Shown here piece after piece: positions 1 to 22,401 of a stretch of 64,000 nt of DNA. The DNA lies in the NCBI GenBank assembly GCA_026014565.1, contig JAOZIB010000026.1:13829-77828 (forward strand), written 5' to 3'. A program made the position numbers and the translations under genes. The notes beneath the pieces are model-generated. The model was not told the DNA's origin. It ran no database searches and worked only from the letters and a program-made list of their open reading frames with translations. Positions within the stretch are counted from its first letter, which is position 1; each line of letters opens with the position of its first letter. The stretch comes from Candidatus Bathyarchaeum sp. (GTDB lineage: Archaea; Thermoproteota; Bathyarchaeia; Bathyarchaeales; Bathyarchaeaceae).

Positions 1-998
1 GCGTTACTCACTGCATCAAAAATGGGAACCCATCCACTGTTTGCTAAATGCAACGAAGAGTATGACTTTATTGGTTCTTTAATCAAATACAAGGCAGGAA
101 CAATGTCTCGGATGTCGCCACCAATTTTTAGCAGACCAAGGTTGAGTCCACGTTTTTTTAATGCTCCAGCAACTCCAGTAACTATGAAGGTTTTACCTGA
201 CCCACTACCAGTTGCTGTCGTAAACAAAAGGACAGGAACTTGTGAAGGCCTTGGCAAGTTTTGTTCAGGATGAAGATTTGTTGATACGCCAATTTCATTG
301 CTAACCGTTTGTATCAATTGTGAATTGGCAGCTTTTATTTCTTGGAAGTCTTCAGATGACAAATCCAATGACTTCATGATGCTGTTAATAATAACAGGGT
401 TTTCATCCAACAAACCGTGAGTTAAAATGCCAACCACATTGCCTTTTTTGTTGCTGAATCCTGACGTAAAATCTTGTGGATTATTTCGGTAATTAAGCCG
501 CTGAATGTGAGAAACAATAATGGGTCTTGCGTTTTTGCCAGGAACGATTTTGCCGTACGTGTGACAGTGAAAACCAGAAACTGTTTCTCCGATGACATCA
601 GTCATGAAACTTTTTCCAATAACAGTAGCTTTCACACGGTCAGTGCAAATCAAGGGCTGAAATTCTACATCAATCAAGCCAAGCCCTTCTCGCATGATGG
701 GGGTAGATGACAAGCGTCCAATGTCGGTTGCATTAGAAAGTATCTGAAAACCTGAACATATACCCAAAACAAACTTATCCGAATCAGCCATTTTAACTAT
801 CTCTTTTTGGAGACGAGAGCTTATGCTTTGAGATTCAACAAGGCTGCCTCCAGGGATTATTAATAAATCAAGAATTTCTGATGCAGGTTTTCCATCAACC
901 ATTGCATCTTCGCGAATTAGGTCAGTTGGTAGGTTTCCGAAGTTTTCAAAGCAAGGTAATGACCCAGAAACATATACTAATCCAATTCGGTGCCGCAA
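1..998 (-). CDS. CobQ/CbiA-family amidotransferase-like protein, partial (3' end runs off the window). A GATase_3-type domain is followed by a P-loop CbiA-like domain.
   Basis: Absent from the ORF track because there is no stop in the window. My minus-strand translation is open from a TTG at 998-996 to position 1. It reads ..RIGLVYVSGSLPCFENFGNLPTDL..LLIIPGGSLVES..FVLGICSGFQIL..SGFHCHTYG.., which is a CobQ-type glutamine amidotransferase pattern with a nucleophile Cys. It continues ..VLLFTTATGSGSGKTFIVTGVAGALKKRGLNLGLLKIGGDIRD, a Walker A / CbiA N-terminus-like segment. The first ATG (MVDGKP) would cut off conserved residues, so the TTG start is a guess. Confidence 0.6.
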   Translation of the reverse strand, partial: MRHRIGLVYVSGSLPCFENFGNLPTDLIREDAMVDGKPASEILDLLIIPGGSLVESQSISSRLQKEIVKMADSDKFVLGICSGFQILSNATDIGRLSSTPIMREGLGLIDVEFQPLICTDRVKATVIGKSFMTDVIGETVSGFHCHTYGKIVPGKNARPIIVSHIQRLNYRNNPQDFTSGFSNKKGNVVGILTHGLLDENPVIINSIMKSLDLSSEDFQEIKAANSQLIQTVSNEIGVSTNLHPEQNLPRPSQVPVLLFTTATGSGSGKTFIVTGVAGALKKRGLNLGLLKIGGDIRDIVPALYLIKEPIKSYSSLHLANSGWVPIFDAVSN

Positions 999-1050
999 GT
1001 TTATCGCCTTTTACGTGTAGGCGAGAAATATGCGAACTCTTATATTTAAG

Positions 1051-1067
1051 TTGGAAGGAGTATCCAT
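1051..1067. promoter_or_regulatory. Operator-like 17-bp inverted repeat TTGGAAGGAGTATCCAT upstream of the hemA-cbiX-cbiC fusion
   Basis: It lies between a TATA-like CTTATATTTA (1038-1047) and the ATG at 1070. It has the same half-sites and spacing as the sites at 22385, 22658 and 29843 (TTGGA-N7-TCCA). Confidence 0.4.
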
Positions 1068-1069
1068 CC

Positions 1070-3430
1070 ATGGAACCGTCTGCTGTTAACAGCCACATCA
1101 TAAACGCAAGGATTACGCACCAAAATTCAGGCATAAGCCTAATTGAAACTGCCGCAGTCAAAGACCTACAAAGAGCCCTAAAGCAGCTTCATGACAATAA
1201 TATCGTTGATGAATGTGTTATACTTCAAACATGTAATCGAACAGAAGCATACATCGTCAGCAAGCACCCAGAAAATGCACCTGAGATTCTAAAAGAAATG
1301 TTACTAGAAAGATGTGAAACAAAAGCAGGAGAAGCAAAAATCGCCATTGAAATTTGTTCAAATCACGACGCTCTAAAACATCTGTTACGTGTTAGTTCAG
1401 GACTAGAATCCATGGTCATAGGGGAAGACCAAATCTTAGGTCAAGTATGGGACGCATACAGGGCAGCAAAGTCTGCAAAAACTGTGGGTCCAGTTCTAAA
1501 AACTGTGTTTACACGAGCAGTTAGTATTGGAAGGCGAGTGAGAAACGAAACAAAAATCAACCGAGGTGCTGTGTCCGTAGGTTCTGTTGCTGTTGAGCTA
1601 GCAGAAACGCTGCTAGGTAGTCTCAATGGAAAAACAGTTTTAATCATGGGCGCAGGAGAAACGGGAACTCTTGTAGCCAAAGCCTTAGCAACATGCGGTC
1701 CCCATGCAATATTCATTGCTAATCGAACATATGAACGGGCAGTAAAGCTTGCGGATGAACTTCAAGGCGAAGTCGTAAAATTTGACAAACTAGAAGATGC
1801 TCTCAAAGATGCCGACGTGGTAATTTGTTCTACTTCTGCACCTCATTATCTGTTGAAAAAGGAACCAGTTTCCAAAATCATGGAACAACGAACCAAAAGA
1901 AAAGAGTTAATGATTATCGATATCTCAAATCCTAGAAACGTAGAAGATTCAGTTCAAGAAATTGACGGAGTTAACCTTTACAACATTGACGACCTTCGAG
2001 GTATATCGAACAAAAACAAAGACAAACGACAAGAAAAGGCAGAAAAGGCTTCAAAAATCGTCCAAGAATCCTTGTTTTTGCTAGAACAAGACCTGAAAGC
2101 CCAGTCAGTAAGCGACATTGTTTCGTTCCTTTTTACTCATGCTGAAGAAATTCGTCAAAGAGAATTAACCAAAGCACAATCCATGTTAGGCGATTTGGAC
2201 CCAAAAAAGAAGGGCGTTATTGACAGTTTAACTTTTGAAATAGTCGAACAAACATTGGTTCCTATCGTGGCAAAATTACGTAACGCAGCGGTCAACGGTG
2301 ACAAACAGATGATAGACGCTGCAACTGAGTTGTTCAAACTAAAACATAAAAACAAGGGTGGAAAAAAATTGAAAAAAACAGTTTTGATTCTTATTGGACA
2401 CGGTAGCAAACTTCCATATAATCGTGAAACTTTAGAGAAACTTGCAGATGTAATCAGAAAAGATTCCAAGTTTGACACAGTGGAAATTGCTTTTATGGTG
2501 AAAAACAAACCAACCATTCCACAAAGCATAGAAAATGCGGTAAAAAATGGTGCCAAAAAAATTGTTTTGATTCCGGCTTTTATTGCCCATGGAGTTCATA
2601 CAAAGGACGAGATTCCTGAAATAATTAAAGCAAAACAAAATGAACTGGGACTGGAAGGCAAAGGAGTGGAAATAATATATGGAGACCCCTTGGGCGCTGA
2701 TGAACGGATAGTAGAAATAATTGAGGATAAAGCTTTGAGTATGCTGGGTCAAGAAACCAATGATGAACAACAGGTTCGAGAAGCCCGTAACCTGAAGGCT
2801 TCAACCAAAATGTACAACACCAGCATAGAAATACTCACCCCCCTCATCAAAGAGGTCATTGAAAATGCTTCAGAAACAGATATTCCTGTAATTGAGCGAG
2901 TGGTTCATACTACTGCAGACCCAGAATTTGCTAAACTTTTAGTCATAAACAAAGATGCCGTAAAAAAGGGTATTGCAGCCATTAAATCGGGAGCAAAAAT
3001 CATAACAGACGTCAAAATGGTTCAAGCAGGAATCAATAAGACCCGGGTTAAACGATTTGGTGGACAGATTCTAACTTATGTTGATGATAAACGTGCCATA
3101 GAAATGGCAAAACAAGAATCGTCCACAAGGTCAGCAGCAGCTATGCGATTAGCAGTAAAAGATGGATTGGATAATTCCGTCATTATTATTGGGAATGCGC
3201 CAACTGCGGCTTTTGAAATTGCCAAAGCAGTAAAACAGGGATTAACTAAACCCGCCTTGATTATTGCAACACCAGTTGGTTATGTAGAGGCTGCTGAATC
3301 GAAAGAAGAAATTGCATCATTACCCATTCCATACATAATAATTCGGGGACCTAAAGGTGGAAGCGCATTAGCAGTCGCGATTTTTAATGCGATACTGGGA
3401 ATGGCAGAGACAGACGCAAACGTAACATAG
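1070..3430 (+). CDS. hemA-cbiX-cbiC: Triple fusion: glutamyl-tRNA reductase (HemA) + small sirohydrochlorin cobaltochelatase (CbiX-S) + cobalt-precorrin-8 methylmutase (CbiC)
   Basis: The track ORF 881..3430 is a single open frame. The likely start is the ATG at 1070 (MEPSAVNSHIIN..), preceded by GGAAGGAG. HemA: ILQTCNRTEAY (catalytic Cys) and VLIMGAGETG (NADPH site). CbiX-S (about 2370-2750): KTVLILIGHGS..LIPAFIAHGVH. CbiC (about 2800-3430): VVHTTADPEF..IIIGNAPTAAFE..ATPVGYVEAAESKE. Confidence 0.85.
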   Translation: MEPSAVNSHIINARITHQNSGISLIETAAVKDLQRALKQLHDNNIVDECVILQTCNRTEAYIVSKHPENAPEILKEMLLERCETKAGEAKIAIEICSNHDALKHLLRVSSGLESMVIGEDQILGQVWDAYRAAKSAKTVGPVLKTVFTRAVSIGRRVRNETKINRGAVSVGSVAVELAETLLGSLNGKTVLIMGAGETGTLVAKALATCGPHAIFIANRTYERAVKLADELQGEVVKFDKLEDALKDADVVICSTSAPHYLLKKEPVSKIMEQRTKRKELMIIDISNPRNVEDSVQEIDGVNLYNIDDLRGISNKNKDKRQEKAEKASKIVQESLFLLEQDLKAQSVSDIVSFLFTHAEEIRQRELTKAQSMLGDLDPKKKGVIDSLTFEIVEQTLVPIVAKLRNAAVNGDKQMIDAATELFKLKHKNKGGKKLKKTVLILIGHGSKLPYNRETLEKLADVIRKDSKFDTVEIAFMVKNKPTIPQSIENAVKNGAKKIVLIPAFIAHGVHTKDEIPEIIKAKQNELGLEGKGVEIIYGDPLGADERIVEIIEDKALSMLGQETNDEQQVREARNLKASTKMYNTSIEILTPLIKEVIENASETDIPVIERVVHTTADPEFAKLLVINKDAVKKGIAAIKSGAKIITDVKMVQAGINKTRVKRFGGQILTYVDDKRAIEMAKQESSTRSAAAMRLAVKDGLDNSVIIIGNAPTAAFEIAKAVKQGLTKPALIIATPVGYVEAAESKEEIASLPIPYIIIRGPKGGSALAVAIFNAILGMAETDANVT

Positions 3431-3447
3431 AATAAAAAGGGTTTGTT

Positions 3448-4533
3448 ATGCGAAGAGTTCTACAATACGGCAACACAACTGGCGCTAATGCTACAGCTGC
3501 CGCAAAAGCTGCCGTAATTACTTTGCTTGATAAACCCGTTGACCACGTAGGCATACCCAGTCCATTAGGGATTCGCTTTGAAATTTTGGTTGAAGAATGT
3601 AAAAAACTCAGTGACGACACAGCCATAGCATACACAATTAAAAACGCGGGAGAAGACATAGACGCAACAGATAAAATCGAAATTTGTGCTGAAGTAAAAC
3701 TAACGGATACAGGCAAAATTAACATAACTGGCGGCAAAGGGGTTGGCATTGTAACCAAACAGGGGTTACCAATTCCCATTGGAGAAGCCGCAATCAATCC
3801 CACTCCAAAAAAAATGATTAAACAAGCCATCAGAGAAGTTTTACCAAAAAATAAAGGCGCCGAAGTAACCATAAGCGTGCCCCAAGGGGAAGTAGTCTCC
3901 AAAAGAACCCAAAACGCAAAACTAGGAATCATAGGCGGAATATCTATTTTAGGCACAACAGGAGTGGTCAGACCTTTATCAATTACAGCATACAGAAGCT
4001 CCATGGTTCCAGCCCTTGAGGTTGCTCTTGCTCAAAAGTATGAACAAATTTTTGTGGTCCCAGGAAACATCGGAGAAAAACTTGCCAAGAAAGTGTTTTC
4101 AGTTCCAGATGATGGGATAGTCCAAACAGGCGATTTCATGGGATACATACTGGAAAAAGCTGTAGAAAAAGGAGCAAAAGATATTGTTGTTTTTGGGCAC
4201 CCAGGAAAGTTAGTTAAACTGGCTGCAGGCATATTTAATACTCATCACAAGATGGGGGATGCCCGAATGGAAGTCATCGCCGCCTATGCGGGAGCTGCTG
4301 GTGCAAGCACAGAGCTTATTCAAAATATTGTTGCTTCAAACACAACCGAACAAACAATAAAGCTTCTTAAACACGCAAACCTTGTTAAACAAACTTTTGA
4401 CCAGATTGCAGAACAAGTTTACGTGCGAGTGTTAGAGAAGACTGAGAACAAAGCTGAAATCAGGGTAGTAATTGTGTCCATGGACGGAACCATTCTGGGA
4501 ACCAGCAAAAACGCAAGGAGTATGATAAAATGA
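3448..4533 (+). CDS. cbiD: Cobalt-precorrin-5B (C1)-methyltransferase CbiD
   Basis: N-terminal GNTTGANATAAAKAAV, GGKGVGIVTK and GGISILGTTG are typical CbiD patterns. It sits in the cbi operon. Confidence 0.88.
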   Translation: MRRVLQYGNTTGANATAAAKAAVITLLDKPVDHVGIPSPLGIRFEILVEECKKLSDDTAIAYTIKNAGEDIDATDKIEICAEVKLTDTGKINITGGKGVGIVTKQGLPIPIGEAAINPTPKKMIKQAIREVLPKNKGAEVTISVPQGEVVSKRTQNAKLGIIGGISILGTTGVVRPLSITAYRSSMVPALEVALAQKYEQIFVVPGNIGEKLAKKVFSVPDDGIVQTGDFMGYILEKAVEKGAKDIVVFGHPGKLVKLAAGIFNTHHKMGDARMEVIAAYAGAAGASTELIQNIVASNTTEQTIKLLKHANLVKQTFDQIAEQVYVRVLEKTENKAEIRVVIVSMDGTILGTSKNARSMIK

Positions 4534-5183
4534 GCAAACTCAAACTAGTTGGAACGGGGCCTGGCTCACCAGAGTATATTACACCAATAGCCAAGAAGCT
4601 AGTAAAAAATGCCGAACTAGTTATAGGTGCAGAACGGTCGTTAGATTTGTTTCAAGATTATATCAAAAGCGAGATTCTTCTTTTGACGGCATCAAACGTA
4701 AAAAGAGCAATCAAACAAGGAGTAAAATTTGCTCAAGACGGAAAAAACGTGGTAATACTTTCAACGGGTGACCCAGGGTTTTCGGGTTTACTACGTACAT
4801 TGGTTAGTGTTGCTGGAAAAGATGCTGATGTAGATATAATTCCAGGAGTTAGTTCAATTCAAGTTTGTGCAGCCCGACTTCGGATGCGTTGGGATACTGC
4901 TGATTTGGTTAGTTTTCACGCAGACATTACCAATGAAAAAAAAGTAGGTATGGTTGACTCATTAAAAAAGGGCAAACCAGTTATTTTGCTTCCTGACCCC
5001 CACAAGTTTACTCCTTGTGATGTTGCAAAGTTCTTAATCGGACACGGAATACCAAAGGAAACTCCTGTTGGTATTTGTGAAAAATTGACCATAAAAAATG
5101 AAAATACAACTACTTCTACGTTGAGTGGAATTTTAGAACAAAAATTTGATCGTTTATGCGTTATGATTGTAGGAACGAAGTGA
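4530..5183 (+). CDS. cbiE: Cobalt-precorrin-7 (C5)-methyltransferase CbiE
   Basis: Tetrapyrrole methylase fold: KLVGTGPGSPEYITP..VVILSTGDPGFSG. ATGA overlap with the cbiD stop. A separate cbiT follows. Confidence 0.82.
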   Translation: MSKLKLVGTGPGSPEYITPIAKKLVKNAELVIGAERSLDLFQDYIKSEILLLTASNVKRAIKQGVKFAQDGKNVVILSTGDPGFSGLLRTLVSVAGKDADVDIIPGVSSIQVCAARLRMRWDTADLVSFHADITNEKKVGMVDSLKKGKPVILLPDPHKFTPCDVAKFLIGHGIPKETPVGICEKLTIKNENTTTSTLSGILEQKFDRLCVMIVGTK

Positions 5184-5205
5184 AAAAGAAGGGGAAGTTT
5201 GCAAC

Positions 5206-5805
5206 ATGGTTGACAATCAAAGTTACAGAATGGGAATTTCAGATTCAGAGTTTATTCAAAGCGACAAGGTTCCAGGTCCTACAAAAGAAGAAATCCGAGT
5301 GATTACCATTTCAAAAGCCCAGTTATTTGAAGGCGCTTATGTGATTGATGTGGGTTGTGGCACGGGAGGATTAACTGTTGAAGCCGCACTGCAAATTAAA
5401 CAGAAAGGAAAAGTCTTTGCCATAGATAAAAAAGATGAAGCAGTTAATTTAACAAAACAAAATGTTGCAAAATTTCAGTTGCAAAATATGGTTGAAGTAA
5501 TCAGGGGAAATGCAGTAGAAGTAATTCCAAAGTTGCCTCAAGCGGACACAATTTTGATAGGAGGCAGTCAGTTGTTAAGAGAAACTATTCAGGCTGCTTA
5601 TGAAAAACTGAAACTGAACGGCAAAGTTGTGATTAATGCAATATTGTTAGAAACAGCAGTTGATGCTGTTGATGAAATCAAGAAGGTTGGCTTCAAAGAT
5701 GTTGATGTTGCTCAGGTTTTTGTTGCTAAAGGGAAACAAGTTCCGTCAGGGACTATGATGTTGGCAAGAAATCCAATCACGATAATATCTGCTAGAAAAA
5801 AGTAA
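5206..5805 (+). CDS. cbiT: Cobalt-precorrin-6B (C15)-methyltransferase, decarboxylating (CbiT)
   Basis: PGPTKEEIR and the SAM-binding motif VIDVGCGTGGLTVEAA. Size of about 200 aa and a position after cbiE. Confidence 0.82.
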   Translation: MVDNQSYRMGISDSEFIQSDKVPGPTKEEIRVITISKAQLFEGAYVIDVGCGTGGLTVEAALQIKQKGKVFAIDKKDEAVNLTKQNVAKFQLQNMVEVIRGNAVEVIPKLPQADTILIGGSQLLRETIQAAYEKLKLNGKVVINAILLETAVDAVDEIKKVGFKDVDVAQVFVAKGKQVPSGTMMLARNPITIISARKK

Positions 5806-5815
5806 GTGAAAAAAA

Positions 5816-6553
5816 ATGATAGAAGGAAAATTTGTTGGAGTGGGTGTGGGTCCAGGTGACCCCGAGTTGATTACTATAAAAGCTGTAAAGGTTTTGAAAA
5901 CTGCAGACATTATAAGTATTCCAAAGGCTCATGAAGATAAGTCTAGTCTTGCTTTGTCGATTGTTAAAGAAGTTTTAGAGGAACGAAAAACTGTTCCTGA
6001 AATTCTGGAGTTAGTTTTTCCCATGATAAACGACAAACAAGAACTCAAAGACGCTTGGAGCGAAAACGCCCAAATTATTGCCCAAAAAGCCAAAATGGGG
6101 AAAACAATTGCCTTCATCACTTTGGGTGACCCCATGTTTTTTAGTACATTCATTTACCTATGCCAAAGAATGAAAGAAGAACACCCAGAAGTCAAACTGG
6201 AAATTATACCAGGGGTTACGTCATTAACTGCGTGTGCAGCAGTTTCTAAGATACCCCTTGCCGAAAAAAGTGAGGTAGTTGCAATCATTCCTTCCAGTGT
6301 TGAATCAGAAAGGATTGGAGAAATTGCCAAACATGCGGACAGCCTAGTTTTGATGAAGGGCGCTAAACGGTTAAAGGAGCTTGTTCCAGTTTTAGAAAAA
6401 TCTGGCTTCAGTAAGAATTCCATAATTACAGTAATACGCAGATGCACCATGCCTGAAGAAACCGTAATTGTTGGAAACATGGATGATGTGAAAAACTGGG
6501 ACATTAATGAGGATTATTTTTCAATTTCAATGATAAAGGAGAACACAAAATGA
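5816..6553 (+). CDS. cbiL: Cobalt-precorrin-2 (C20)-methyltransferase CbiL
   Basis: FVGVGVGPGDPELITIKA..FITLGDPMFFSTF is the CbiL/CobI-type tetrapyrrole methylase pattern. Confidence 0.8.
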   Translation: MIEGKFVGVGVGPGDPELITIKAVKVLKTADIISIPKAHEDKSSLALSIVKEVLEERKTVPEILELVFPMINDKQELKDAWSENAQIIAQKAKMGKTIAFITLGDPMFFSTFIYLCQRMKEEHPEVKLEIIPGVTSLTACAAVSKIPLAEKSEVVAIIPSSVESERIGEIAKHADSLVLMKGAKRLKELVPVLEKSGFSKNSIITVIRRCTMPEETVIVGNMDDVKNWDINEDYFSISMIKENTK

Positions 6554-7323
6554 AACAAGTAATCTTTATTGGTGCAGGTCCAGGAGACCCTGAACTAATC
6601 ACCCTGAAAGGAAAAAAGAACCTAGAAAAAGCAGATGTAGTAATCTATGCGGGTTCGTTATTGAATCCAGAAATTCTTGGTTATGCGAAAAAGGATGTCA
6701 AACTTTATGATAGCGCCAAGATGAATTTGAAGGAAGTTCTTCAAGTTATGGTGGACTCGGTTAGAGAAGGAAAAGTTGTTGCGCGAGTTCACGATGGCGA
6801 CCCAAGCTTTTTTGGTGCCATAACTGAGCAGATGGACTTTTTGGATGAACAGAAAATCGAATATGATGTGATTCCAGGAGTGAGTTGTTTGCAAGGGGGA
6901 GCAGCAGCCTTGAGAAGAGAATTAACGTTGCCCAATATTTCCCAGAGTGTAATAATTACTCGACCCGAGGGTAGAACTCCAGTTCCTGAAAGAGAAAGAA
7001 TCCGAGAATTAGCTAAACATGGAACAACCATGGTCATCTTTTTGGGGATTCAGCACGTGGAAAAGGTCATAGATGAGCTGAAGTCGAGTGGTCGTCCACT
7101 AGATACTCCAGTTTCTGTTGTGTACAGAGCTACTTGGAAACAACAAAAAATAGTTCGAGGCACCATACAAGACATAGTCCAAAAAGTCAAAGATGCAGGT
7201 ATAACACGAACTGCATTGATTTTTGTTGGGGAAGTTTTCAACCCGAAAAGTTACGATTTTTCGAAGCTTTATGACCCAAAGTTTACTACAGGTTACCGTA
7301 AAGGCGAAGATGATGTTTCCTAG
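6550..7323 (+). CDS. cbiF: Cobalt-precorrin-4 (C11)-methyltransferase CbiF
   Basis: VIFIGAGPGDPELITLKG..VIYAGSLLNPEIL..RVHDGDPSFFGA..TRPEGRTP is the classical CbiF/CobM pattern. ATGA overlap with cbiL. Confidence 0.88.
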   Translation: MKQVIFIGAGPGDPELITLKGKKNLEKADVVIYAGSLLNPEILGYAKKDVKLYDSAKMNLKEVLQVMVDSVREGKVVARVHDGDPSFFGAITEQMDFLDEQKIEYDVIPGVSCLQGGAAALRRELTLPNISQSVIITRPEGRTPVPERERIRELAKHGTTMVIFLGIQHVEKVIDELKSSGRPLDTPVSVVYRATWKQQKIVRGTIQDIVQKVKDAGITRTALIFVGEVFNPKSYDFSKLYDPKFTTGYRKGEDDVS

Positions 7324-8392
7324 AGGCGTAGCAATTTTCGCCATTACTAGGCAAGGAGTAGAAACTGCAGCCAAAATACGGAATGCTCTGGAAAAAACTG
7401 GAATAAAATGCCAAGTATATGCAGTTGAAAAGTATGTTAAAAAAAATGTTGTACCCATCAAGAAGACCGGAGATGCAATAAAAGCTGTTTTCAGCGATGT
7501 GGATGGAATTATTGGGGTTATGGCTTCGGGCATAGTTGTAAGAAAAATTGCTCCGCTACTGAAAAGTAAACTATCTGACCCTGCAGTTGTTTGTGTTGAT
7601 ACCTCTGGAAAGTTTGCAATTAGTTTACTTTCTGGACATTATGGGGGCGCCAACAAACTTACAAAACTAGTTGCGGAAGGCTTGGGTTCAACTGCTGTGA
7701 TTACTACTGCTTCTGATGTTTTGGGCAAAAAAAGCATTGATGAACTTGCTAAAGACTTGCACTGCCAAATATTAAATCCGCAGAGTTTGGTTGTAGTTAA
7801 CTCTGCATTAGTTAATGAAGAGAATTTGGGTTTGGTTTTGTCAGGGAACGTTAAGATTTCCTTGGGTCGAATCAGGGATTATGAAGTAAAAAAAGCAGAA
7901 AACATCAACCAAGCAATCAAGATTGTTCAAGATTTTGATGCGGGAGCAATAATTTCATCAGAACAAGTTCCAAAGAACAGTTTGAAGAATGTTACTTTTT
8001 TGAAGCCAAAAACAATCGCTGTTGGGATTGGTTCACGAAAAATTGTCAATGAAAAAGATATTTTGGAGTTAGTGAATTCTGCGTTGATTCAACTGCAGAT
8101 TCCCTTAGAGCGTGTTGATCGGTTGGCTACGGTTGACATAAAAAAGGATTCAGAAAACATGTTAAACGCAGTCAAGAAAATGGGTTTGACTTTAGAGTTC
8201 ATTAGTGTTGGTGAGCTTGGTAAGTTTAGTCATGAAGACCTTTCTGAAGATTCACAGTTAGTTAAAGAAAAAATTGGAGTTGGAGGAGTATGCGAAAGAG
8301 CAGCGTTGATAGTTGCGGGAAAAAATGCAAAACTGTTATTGAAGAAAACCAAAGCAAAAGGCGTGACCGTGGCAGTAGCCGAGGGCGGATAG
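7310..8392 (+). CDS. cbiG: Cobalt-precorrin-5A hydrolase CbiG
   Basis: The track ORF starts at 7223. The likely start is ATG 7310/7313 (MMFPRGVAIFAITRQG), overlapping the cbiF stop. C-terminal GIGSRK..VATVDIKKDS..GVGGVCERAAL is typical of CbiG. Confidence 0.8.
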   Translation: MMFPRGVAIFAITRQGVETAAKIRNALEKTGIKCQVYAVEKYVKKNVVPIKKTGDAIKAVFSDVDGIIGVMASGIVVRKIAPLLKSKLSDPAVVCVDTSGKFAISLLSGHYGGANKLTKLVAEGLGSTAVITTASDVLGKKSIDELAKDLHCQILNPQSLVVVNSALVNEENLGLVLSGNVKISLGRIRDYEVKKAENINQAIKIVQDFDAGAIISSEQVPKNSLKNVTFLKPKTIAVGIGSRKIVNEKDILELVNSALIQLQIPLERVDRLATVDIKKDSENMLNAVKKMGLTLEFISVGELGKFSHEDLSEDSQLVKEKIGVGGVCERAALIVAGKNAKLLLKKTKAKGVTVAVAEGG

Positions 8393-9114
8393 CCGCAGTC
8401 GGCATTGGTCCAGGTGCCCTTGAGCACATGACCCTTAAAGCCAAACAAGAAATTGAAAACGCCGATGTTATTGTAGGTTACAAAACGTACGTCAAACTAA
8501 TTGAGCAAATTATCAAACCCGAAACCGAAGTTTTCAGCGGCAACATGGGACAAGAAGTAGACAGAGCCCGAAAAGCCATCCAAAAAGCCCAAGAAAATAA
8601 ACAAGTAGCAGTTATCAGCAGTGGAGATTCAGGAGTTTACGGCATGGCAGGCGTAATTTTAGAAACTGCAGCCCATGAAAATGTAAATGTTCCAATAGAA
8701 GTTGTCCCAGGAGTAACTGCTGCTACTGCGGCCGCGGCAACTTTAGGTGCACCCTTGGTTGGAGATTTCGCTGCCATTAGTTTAAGTGATATTTTGACGC
8801 CATGGGAACTAATAGAAAAACGGTTGCGTGCGGCTGCTGAGGCAGACTTTGGGATTGTTTTGTATAATCCCCAAAGTATGGGACGCAAAAAGCCGTTGGC
8901 AGAGGCTCATAAAATTTTGTTGGAATACCGTGACCCCAAGACTAATGTTGGTATTGTAAAGAACGCAAAAAGGGCTGGAGAAGATGCTGTTATTACGACT
9001 CTAAAAGACATGATGAATTTTGAAATTGATATGTCGACCGTTTTGGTTATCGGAAACTCGAAAACTTACTTGATTGAAGATAAACTGGTTACGCCTAGAG
9101 GTTATAGTTTCTAA
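8290..9114 (+). CDS. cbiH: Cobalt-precorrin-3B (C17)-methyltransferase CbiH (start uncertain)
   Basis: RIAAVGIGPGALEHMTLKA..VIVGYKTYVKLI..VISSGDSGVYGMAG. The only canonical in-frame start is ATG 8290, 103 nt inside cbiG. The conserved part begins at about 8386. Confidence 0.82.
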   Translation: MRKSSVDSCGKKCKTVIEENQSKRRDRGSSRGRIAAVGIGPGALEHMTLKAKQEIENADVIVGYKTYVKLIEQIIKPETEVFSGNMGQEVDRARKAIQKAQENKQVAVISSGDSGVYGMAGVILETAAHENVNVPIEVVPGVTAATAAAATLGAPLVGDFAAISLSDILTPWELIEKRLRAAAEADFGIVLYNPQSMGRKKPLAEAHKILLEYRDPKTNVGIVKNAKRAGEDAVITTLKDMMNFEIDMSTVLVIGNSKTYLIEDKLVTPRGYSF

Positions 9115-22384: not shown

Positions 22385-22401
22385 TTGGATGGGTTATCCA
22401 A
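22385..22401. promoter_or_regulatory. Operator-like 17-bp palindrome TTGGATGGGTTATCCAA upstream of the chlID-led operon
   Basis: Perfect TTGGAT/ATCCAA inverted repeat with a 5-nt spacer. It lies just promoter-distal of the start codon (22241) and downstream, in gene orientation, of a TTTTATAAA TATA-like box at about 22410-22418. Confidence 0.5.

Follow-up and report, generated by a model that had tools for sequence, protein, structure and literature searches.

We analysed a 64,000-nucleotide (nt) window of DNA from Candidatus Bathyarchaeum sp.; all positions below refer to this window, and the genome to which it belongs (labelled G000) is 95.7% complete. Our subject is a gene on the forward strand, hemA-cbiX-cbiC, in which glutamyl-tRNA reductase (HemA, also GluTR), a small sirohydrochlorin chelatase (CbiX) and cobalt-precorrin-8 methylmutase (CbiC) are predicted to be joined in one polypeptide. 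The open reading frame (ORF) list of the window gave this frame as open from 881 to 3430. A sequence-only reading had proposed three complete modules in a single uninterrupted frame, and the ORF list, the translation and the Pfam and NCBIfam profile searches bore this out. Neither junction contained a stop codon or a change of frame, and the motifs and linkers that it had quoted were all located where it had placed them (Table 1).

Homologous proteins begin at the position of ATG 1070, with the sequence ME(P/A)S. A TATA-like sequence (TTATATTTAA, 1040-1049) and an operator-like imperfect palindrome (TTGGAAGGAGTATCCAT, 1051-1067) lie just upstream, the palindrome ending 2 bases before this ATG. 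Because the N-termini of the homologues match and these two elements precede it so closely, we assign the biological start of the fusion gene to ATG 1070. Three minus-strand ORFs inside the gene (1441-1716, 2155-2556 and 2432-2770) were rejected as genes and, on the ORF list only, taken as shadow frames.

Table 1. Features of the hemA-cbiX-cbiC locus in the 64,000-nt window
Feature	Position	Strand	Remarks
cbiA (cobyrinic acid a,c-diamide synthase)	3-998	-	NF004921, 370.9 bits; first gene of the divergent operon
Putative promoter region of the fusion gene	1040-1067	+	TATA-like box and palindrome, by sequence inspection
Fused gene hemA-cbiX-cbiC	1070-3430	+	786 codons and stop; 2361 nt
HemA (glutamyl-tRNA reductase) module	1070-2344	+	Residues 1-425; catalytic domain with Cys55, NADPH domain with GAGETG, complete dimerisation domain
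TCNRTEAY	1229-1252	+	HemA motif
GAGETG	1649-1666	+	HemA NADPH motif
Linker 1, KHKNKGGKKLKK	2342-2377	+	Lys-rich; by junction alignment, former hemA stop and intergenic spacer, now read through
Putative relic of the cbiX-cbiC translation start	2354-2371	+	Shine-Dalgarno-like AAGGGTGG (2354-2361), 7-nt spacer, in-frame TTG (2369-2371, Leu434)
Small CbiX module	2378-2737	+	Residues 437-556; CbiXS/CfbA-type class II sirohydrochlorin chelatase; His444, His507/His510
GHGS	2396-2407	+	CbiX motif
AHGVH	2585-2599	+	CbiX motif
Linker 2	2738-2812	+	Old CbiX-CbiC junction, common to unfused relatives; Gln/Glu-rich from 2747
CbiC (cobalt-precorrin-8 methylmutase) module	2813-3430	+	Residues 582-786 and stop; His613 in HTTADPEF
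HTTADPEF	2906-2929	+	CbiC motif
GNAPTA	3191-3208	+	CbiC motif
cbiD, cbiE, cbiT, cbiL, cbiF, cbiG, cbiH	3448-9114	+	NCBIfam equivalog matches; remainder of the fusion-headed operon

Modules of the fused protein

Profile searches covered each module almost from end to end. In the HemA part, Pfam matches were GlutR_N (PF05201; residues 15-161, profile positions 3-151 of 151), Shikimate_DH (PF01488; residues 176-312, positions 1-138 of 138) and GlutR_dimer (PF00745; residues 326-424, positions 1-99 of 99). The NCBIfam equivalog TIGR01035 (hemA) scored 399.1 bits (cut-off 209.55), and the match spanned profile positions 3-415 of 416. Residues 444-552 matched the CbiX family (PF01903; E = 3.9e-26, positions 1-105 of 106), and residues 582-777 matched the CbiC family (PF02570; E = 2.4e-65, positions 3-195 of 196).

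Solved structures supported the same assignments. The HemA module matched the Methanopyrus kandleri glutamyl-tRNA reductase (PDB 1gpj; E = 4.9e-74), with GAGETG aligned to the GAGEMG of the NADPH loop and Cys55 aligned to residue 48. The 1gpj chain has Ser at that position, which we take to be that of the nucleophile, the crystal form presumably being a C48S variant. The CbiX module matched the Methanocaldococcus jannaschii chelatase (PDB 6m2a; E = 5.6e-34), whose GHGS and AHGIH motifs aligned with His444 (GHGS) and His507 (AHGVH) of the fusion. His613 aligned with the His of the HATAD motif in the CbiC structures 2afr and 1v9c. With the catalytic residues kept, all three modules look catalytically intact, and each would be expected to work like its free-standing counterpart. 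The HemA module is predicted to reduce Glu-tRNA(Glu) to glutamate-1-semialdehyde, as it is the sole hemA copy of the genome and hemL, hemB, hemC and hemD lie in the adjacent operon.

An AlphaFold monomer model, built on a 63-sequence alignment, showed three well-folded modules. The predicted local distance difference test (pLDDT) score was mostly 75-95 (about 90 in CbiC) and fell below 50 only at residues 403-432 and 562-575, and the predicted template modelling (pTM) score was 0.40. The model suggests an arrangement like beads on a string, with disordered linkers and with no fixed arrangement or inter-module contact predicted.

We then compared the modules with the enzymes that they resemble. 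The three domains, the catalytic Cys, the NADPH motif and the dimerisation domain are shared with GluTR as represented by 1gpj, whereas the fusion adds 360 C-terminal residues that make up two further enzymes; the free HemA of relatives ends about 8 residues beyond the point where the linker of the fusion begins. The CbiX module has the single alpha/beta domain of about 120 residues and the two His motifs of CbiXS/CfbA proteins (Archaeoglobus fulgidus 2dj5/1tjn; M. jannaschii 6m25/6m2a). Here, however, this domain is embedded between two enzymes, and its dimerisation would have to occur inside a dimer of the whole fusion.

The CbiX-CbiC part of the architecture proved to be familiar. The three enzymes had been described as normally separate proteins, which does not hold for CbiX and CbiC in Bathyarchaeia: there, a CbiX-CbiC protein of about 352 residues is the rule (>100 clusters), and such proteins have a named family, NF004449. 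Residues 436-780 of the fusion show the CbiX-then-CbiC order and the linker of NF004449/PRK05782 and of the Bathyarchaeia proteins. They matched positions 3-331 of 333 of the NF004449 profile at 169.6 bits, below its cut-off of 298, so that the architecture is alike but the sequence lineage is another. Unfused CbiX-CbiC relatives are 60-88% identical and are encoded at the corresponding operon position, with hemA directly before the gene and cbiD after it; what distinguishes the fusion from them is the complete HemA joined at the N-terminus. The novelty is thus confined to the HemA junction, the CbiX-CbiC half being both old and common.

Independent assemblies, rarity and origin

The same 2361-nt frame was present in six independent assemblies, with equal length and with neither a stop codon nor an indel. 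These were the window itself, a same-genus single-contig 2.2-Mb genome (G006; fusion protein 86% identical to that of the window), ENA ERZ22147072 and JGI 3300022698, 3300022699 and 3300076654 (82-98% protein identity for the ENA and JGI contigs). Linker 1 had an identical length in all six, and the junction showed ordinary substitutions only. Pairwise ratios of nonsynonymous to synonymous substitution rates (dN/dS) were 0.06-0.13 per module, at dS of 0.6-1.1, and about 0.3 in the linkers. Such low ratios at dS up to about 1 indicate that selection has preserved the frame while the sequences diverged substantially.

The junction is A-rich and homopolymeric (AAAAAAATTGAAAAAAA), a kind of sequence that is prone to indel errors, and more distant relatives have a stop at this position. 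Both facts would suit an artefact in which hemA and cbiX-cbiC are really two genes, joined by a mis-called base or a collapsed indel. Such an error would have had to recur in assemblies from different projects that are 82-98% identical and agree in frame and linker length without a junction indel, one of them a single-contig genome, and it does not account for an intact frame at dS of about 1. We regard this explanation as having a negligible chance of being correct; the comparison of assemblies indicates that the fusion is genuine. The search of related genomes that had been proposed as a check turned up further fused copies, free of stops and indels.

The full triple architecture is nevertheless rare, as had been suspected. 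Among 401 genomes of the class (at least 80% complete), hemA and cbiX-cbiC were fused without a stop in two (G000 and G006). They were split in dozens of genomes of a neighbouring family (f9), and in 13 genomes they lay in one frame with one or two stops between them. Within the genus, represented by 25 species representatives, two were fused, three were split, two had only a distant hemA (39% identity) and 18 had no hemA or cbiC. Several of these 18 are >90% complete or single-contig; B12 synthesis is patchy in the genus. In sequence clusters at 90% identity, the architecture formed six among 5.8 billion. Among 1.84 billion cluster representatives, no triple fusion was among the 150 best matches listed; this count carries little weight, since the representative of a cluster that contains fused proteins may itself be unfused.

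The junction alignment with unfused relatives points to a simple origin. In the split relatives (G004, G017 and G012 of the same genus, and G040 of another family), hemA ends with TAA or TGA. Next come a purine-rich motif resembling a ribosome-binding site and a cbiX-cbiC gene of about 355 codons that starts with ATG or TTG. Neither G000 nor G006 retains the hemA stop, and in both the spacer is translated as KHKNKGGKKLKK. The fusion would have arisen once and recently, in a sub-clade of one Bathyarchaeia genus, through loss of the hemA stop codon and of the short spacer that separated hemA from its downstream neighbour, which would already have been a CbiX-CbiC fusion.

Three further sequences were examined in this connection. 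The G025 genome was considered as another hemA fusion and rejected, since its hemA is followed by a stop and then by hemL. The G004 bin contained a 1.6-kb contig (C162:623-1573) with a cbiX-cbiC fragment 89% identical to the query, while its own split genes are about 70% identical; a second strain is probably mixed into this bin. In a 537-residue protein (P0007) from an 11.9-kb JGI contig, HemA residues 1 to about 265 run straight into the second half of CbiX, which is followed by CbiC. Missing as a result of this deletion are the dimerisation domain of HemA and the first His of CbiX; a decaying allele is the probable explanation, an assembly chimera a possible one.

Fission in a related lineage and the internal start codon

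A stand-alone CbiX-CbiC protein (P0390, 88% identical) was found in three further independent assemblies (L034, L035 and L036). The L034 locus (649-1000) aligned with the window from 917 to 1156 and then jumped to 2294. In this lineage, some 379 codons of hemA have been lost in frame, and the deletion is flanked by two short stretches that encode AAV. The 48-codon hemA remnant ends with TAA, and cbiX-cbiC starts with an ATG exactly at the position of TTG 2369 of the window. The cbi operon is kept in the L034 lineage although this hemA is deleted.

In a tree of cbiX-cbiC DNA, the fused sequences and the L034 lineage formed one clade with 100/100 support. The L034 lineage was sister to P0003 and nested among the fused sequences within a 100/99 group, and its junction differed from the fused form by only one A-to-T change and deletions totalling 3 nt. 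This nesting and the near-identical junction ruled out the L034 arrangement as the ancestral split state. The most economical reading of these sequences is that one fusion occurred, followed by secondary loss of HemA and fission.

The position reused by the L034 lineage appears to be a relic of the former cbiX-cbiC start. In motif and spacing, the AAGGGTGG sequence before TTG 2369 resembles the ribosome-binding sites of cbiE, cbiF and cbiT. Codon 434 is TTG in five of the fused assemblies and ATG in one, and nearby Leu codons vary synonymously. A product begun at this codon would start (M)KKTVLILIGHGSK, and judging from these six sequences a separate CbiX-CbiC may still be initiated there.

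It is possible, though we think it clearly the less probable outcome, that the cell still makes mostly two proteins, by restarting at TTG 2369, with the full-length product as a minor species. The retention of a start-capable codon in all fused copies while its Leu neighbours drift, the upstream motif at a 7-nt distance and the ability of the L034 lineage to tolerate an upstream stop and to use the same position as an ATG start would all be in keeping with this. However, the absence of a stop codon means that ribosomes translating hemA must continue into cbiX, and the full-length product would thus be made at least as much as HemA. In addition, the sample consists of six sequences, and one fused relative (P0006) has a degraded Shine-Dalgarno-like motif upstream of the internal TTG.

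Consequences of the fusion and pathway context

We favour, with a probability of roughly 0.8, the reading that the gene encodes a genuine three-enzyme protein (glutamyl-tRNA reductase, small CbiX cobaltochelatase and cobalt-precorrin-8 methylmutase) which originated by a single recent stop loss and whose main effect would be obligatory 1:1:1 synthesis of the three activities from the first cistron of a B12-regulated operon. Co-expression of this kind follows trivially from the fusion, which probably changes little else.

GluTR and CbiC/CobH are homodimers. CbiXS is likewise a homodimer, with its active site at the subunit interface (PMC7689651). With homodimeric parents of this kind, dimerisation of the fusion is plausible, and with flexible linkers one dimer could satisfy the needs of all three modules.

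The three steps had been called non-consecutive, and they are: HemA and CbiX are about seven enzymatic steps apart, CbiX and CbiC about nine. Steps so far apart in a pathway are not expected to be linked by channelling, and a role of the protein as a scaffold for substrate channelling is unlikely.

The metal of the CbiX module, for which an altered specificity had been suggested as an alternative, is not readable from the sequence and was weighed separately. Its score against NF033198, the sirohydrochlorin nickelochelatase family, was 126.8 bits (cut-off 120). Among solved structures, the M. jannaschii chelatase (E = 5.6e-34) matched more closely than A. fulgidus CbiXS (E = 1e-10), and many unfused homologues are named "nickelochelatase" by NCBI. 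These observations would fit a nickel (CfbA) chelatase, or an iron chelatase, that links B12 to another cofactor. Family naming does not settle which metal is inserted, because class II sirohydrochlorin chelatases are largely without intrinsic metal specificity (PMC7689651). In G000 we found neither McrA (methyl-coenzyme M reductase) nor a NIR_SIR sirohaem-dependent sulfite/nitrite reductase, and the module, the only class II chelatase found in the genome, is joined to CbiC in the first gene of a cbi operon. A nickel or iron enzyme is accordingly very improbable. Given the lack of McrA, the fusion to CbiC within the cbi operon and the poor intrinsic specificity of these chelatases, cobalt is the best assignment by context.

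Profile searches of G000 found one copy each of the HemA, CbiX and CbiC families, all of them within the fusion gene; a separate hemA or cbiC, for which a search had been advised, was not found elsewhere in this 95.7%-complete genome. The fusion gene heads the cbi operon and diverges from a second operon, cbiA-sirC-hemB-hemL-hemC-cobA-hemD, which extends upstream beyond the window. All hem and cbi genes thus lie in one divergent B12 cluster, and downstream of the cbi operon are an exporter, cbiZ, cobN, a BtuFCD-type importer and chlID. No ferrochelatase was found in G000, AhbA/B gave no match above the cut-off, and no haem synthesis genes were otherwise seen. The tetrapyrrole pathway of this genome appears to serve cobamide only. 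The proposal that the fusion commits glutamyl-tRNA flux to B12 therefore adds nothing: all hem genes are already in the B12 cluster, unfused relatives share the operon, and the genome showed no pathway to any other tetrapyrrole end product, which makes this explanation unnecessary.

CbiJ (cobalt-precorrin-6A reductase, PF02571) was not detected in G000 by a search that, run as a control, also missed CbiJ in Haloferax, Sulfolobus and Methanosarcina. The CbiJ step is a recognised pathway gap in haloarchaea (PMC8305020).

A haem catalase gene lies about 12 kb upstream of the window (contig C32:741-1875; L023:447-1914, minus strand). It is split into two overlapping frames, which cover Pfam Catalase positions 1-137 and 109-381, and the split may be a true frameshift or a sequencing error.

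Fusions of HemA to CbiC were also found outside this clade. In an archaeal, Bathyarchaeia-type lineage represented by P0008 (661 residues, four contigs), HemA is joined to CbiC in the same gene order without a CbiX module, and a separate 136-residue cbiX product is encoded at the far end of the divergent hem operon. The P0008 linker was considered as a decayed CbiX and rejected, as it has only about 24 residues and the locus has its separate cbiX. In Solirubrobacteraceae (Actinomycetota), HemA-CbiC proteins of 674-703 residues formed eight clusters (P0161 and P0271-P0277; only named members assign the family). At the P0277 locus, the gene heads a B12 operon divergent from cbiA; taking the P0008 and P0277 loci together, HemA-CbiC genes head B12 operons that diverge from cbiA or sirC, like the triple fusion but without the CbiX module. 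HemA identity to the query was 51% for P0008 and 31% for P0161, against 60-70% for the unfused relatives. Because unfused HemA proteins are much closer to the query, these HemA-CbiC fusions are separate events, and such fusions have arisen at least twice more.

Two neighbouring features of these loci were recorded. At the P0008 locus (L025:1-2109), two small unannotated genes lie between the separate cbiX and a nitrogenase-like Oxidored_nitro gene, an arrangement that recalls the F430 genes cfbA/cfbD. The P0277 contig (L037:3301-5052) encodes a 583-residue protein with both a CbiX chelatase domain and an ABC-transporter ATPase (CbiO-like) domain.

HemA accepts fusion partners at its N- or its C-terminus. 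We found a C-terminal hemerythrin in P0266 (582 residues) and an N-terminal precorrin-2 dehydrogenase (SirC-like) in P0127 and P0192 (619-642 residues). Multifunctional enzymes are frequent in this area of metabolism, CysG and CbiET being examples from B12 and sirohaem synthesis. The other HemA and tetrapyrrole fusions join adjacent or regulatory functions, and none pairs the first step with a chelatase and a late corrin step.

These recurrences bear on whether joining HemA to CbiC, with or without CbiX, has been selected because it regulates or stabilises a rate-limiting enzyme. CbiC might, for example, report late intermediates to glutamyl-tRNA reductase, or dimeric partners might stabilise the HemA dimer. 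Separate origins in this clade, in the P0008 lineage and in Solirubrobacteraceae (eight clusters), and the position of the fused gene at the head of a B12 operon in both loci examined (P0008 and P0277), would be explained by such adaptive coupling. A CbiC/CobH-like domain is, moreover, thought to be the tetrapyrrole-binding sensor in the cobalt regulator CoaR (PMC7689651); PDB 8x33 and 9ika were among the structure-search matches. In dozens of genomes, however, cbi(X)C directly follows hemA, and often a single stop codon is all that keeps them from being fused; repeated fusion is therefore expected by chance. The triple fusion is shallow, with two of 401 genomes, and one lineage inside the fused clade undid it. 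The CbiC module, as the only copy and with its catalytic His kept, must remain an enzyme, and no inter-module interface is predicted (pTM 0.40). We consider adaptive coupling unlikely. More doubtful still is the specific form in which recurrent HemA-CbiC joining is not a matter of chance and the CbiC module senses late B12 intermediates and feeds back on glutamyl-tRNA reductase where haem feedback is absent.

Several points weigh against a three-enzyme protein whose fusion does little more than force co-expression. The recurrence of HemA-CbiC fusions in three lineages hints that the pairing could be advantageous in ways other than neutral co-expression. That the three modules would be compatible as dimers is reasoned from known structures. 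The absence of other tetrapyrrole branches rests on a genome that is 95.7% complete, and that genome contains the frameshifted haem catalase gene. The degraded Shine-Dalgarno-like motif of P0006, described above, belongs here as well.

Full-text literature searches returned no publication describing a HemA-CbiC or HemA-CbiX-CbiC fusion and nothing relevant on Bathyarchaeota, cobalamin and hemA. We regard the protein as a new domain arrangement of three well-known enzymes, with a simple recent origin and no evidence of new chemistry. Public records label the triple fusion and the HemA-CbiC proteins only as "glutamyl-tRNA reductase". Genomes with the triple fusion annotated in this way would be scored as lacking CbiX and CbiC and as unable to make B12, and the name "nickelochelatase" given to unfused relatives wrongly suggests F430 synthesis. 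The locus also offers a clean, datable example of coupled neighbours fused by stop loss and then separated by a fission that would have reused a buried start. A natural polypeptide that unites three homodimeric enzymes, and two HemA-CbiC fusions of independent origin, bear on possible corrinoid regulation of the first tetrapyrrole step in haem-free organisms; if this step is not regulated by corrinoids, the triple fusion is an ordinary operon-level one.

Within the fusion-headed operon, the start of cbiG (7223-8392) is uncertain: there are ATG codons near position 7310, and the longest frame, from TTG 7223, overlaps cbiF. An Rfam scan of window positions 1-4000 returned no family and hence no B12 riboswitch, and a bacterial-type promoter and terminator scan of the junction was uninformative, the host being archaeal. 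The approximately 30 bases that precede ATG 1070, including the TATA-like sequence and the palindrome, are nearly invariant among relatives. Because these elements sit immediately before the ATG, the fusion mRNA is probably leaderless. Perfect copies of the palindrome, TTGGATGGnTnATCCAA, occur elsewhere in the window at 22385, 22658 and 29843.

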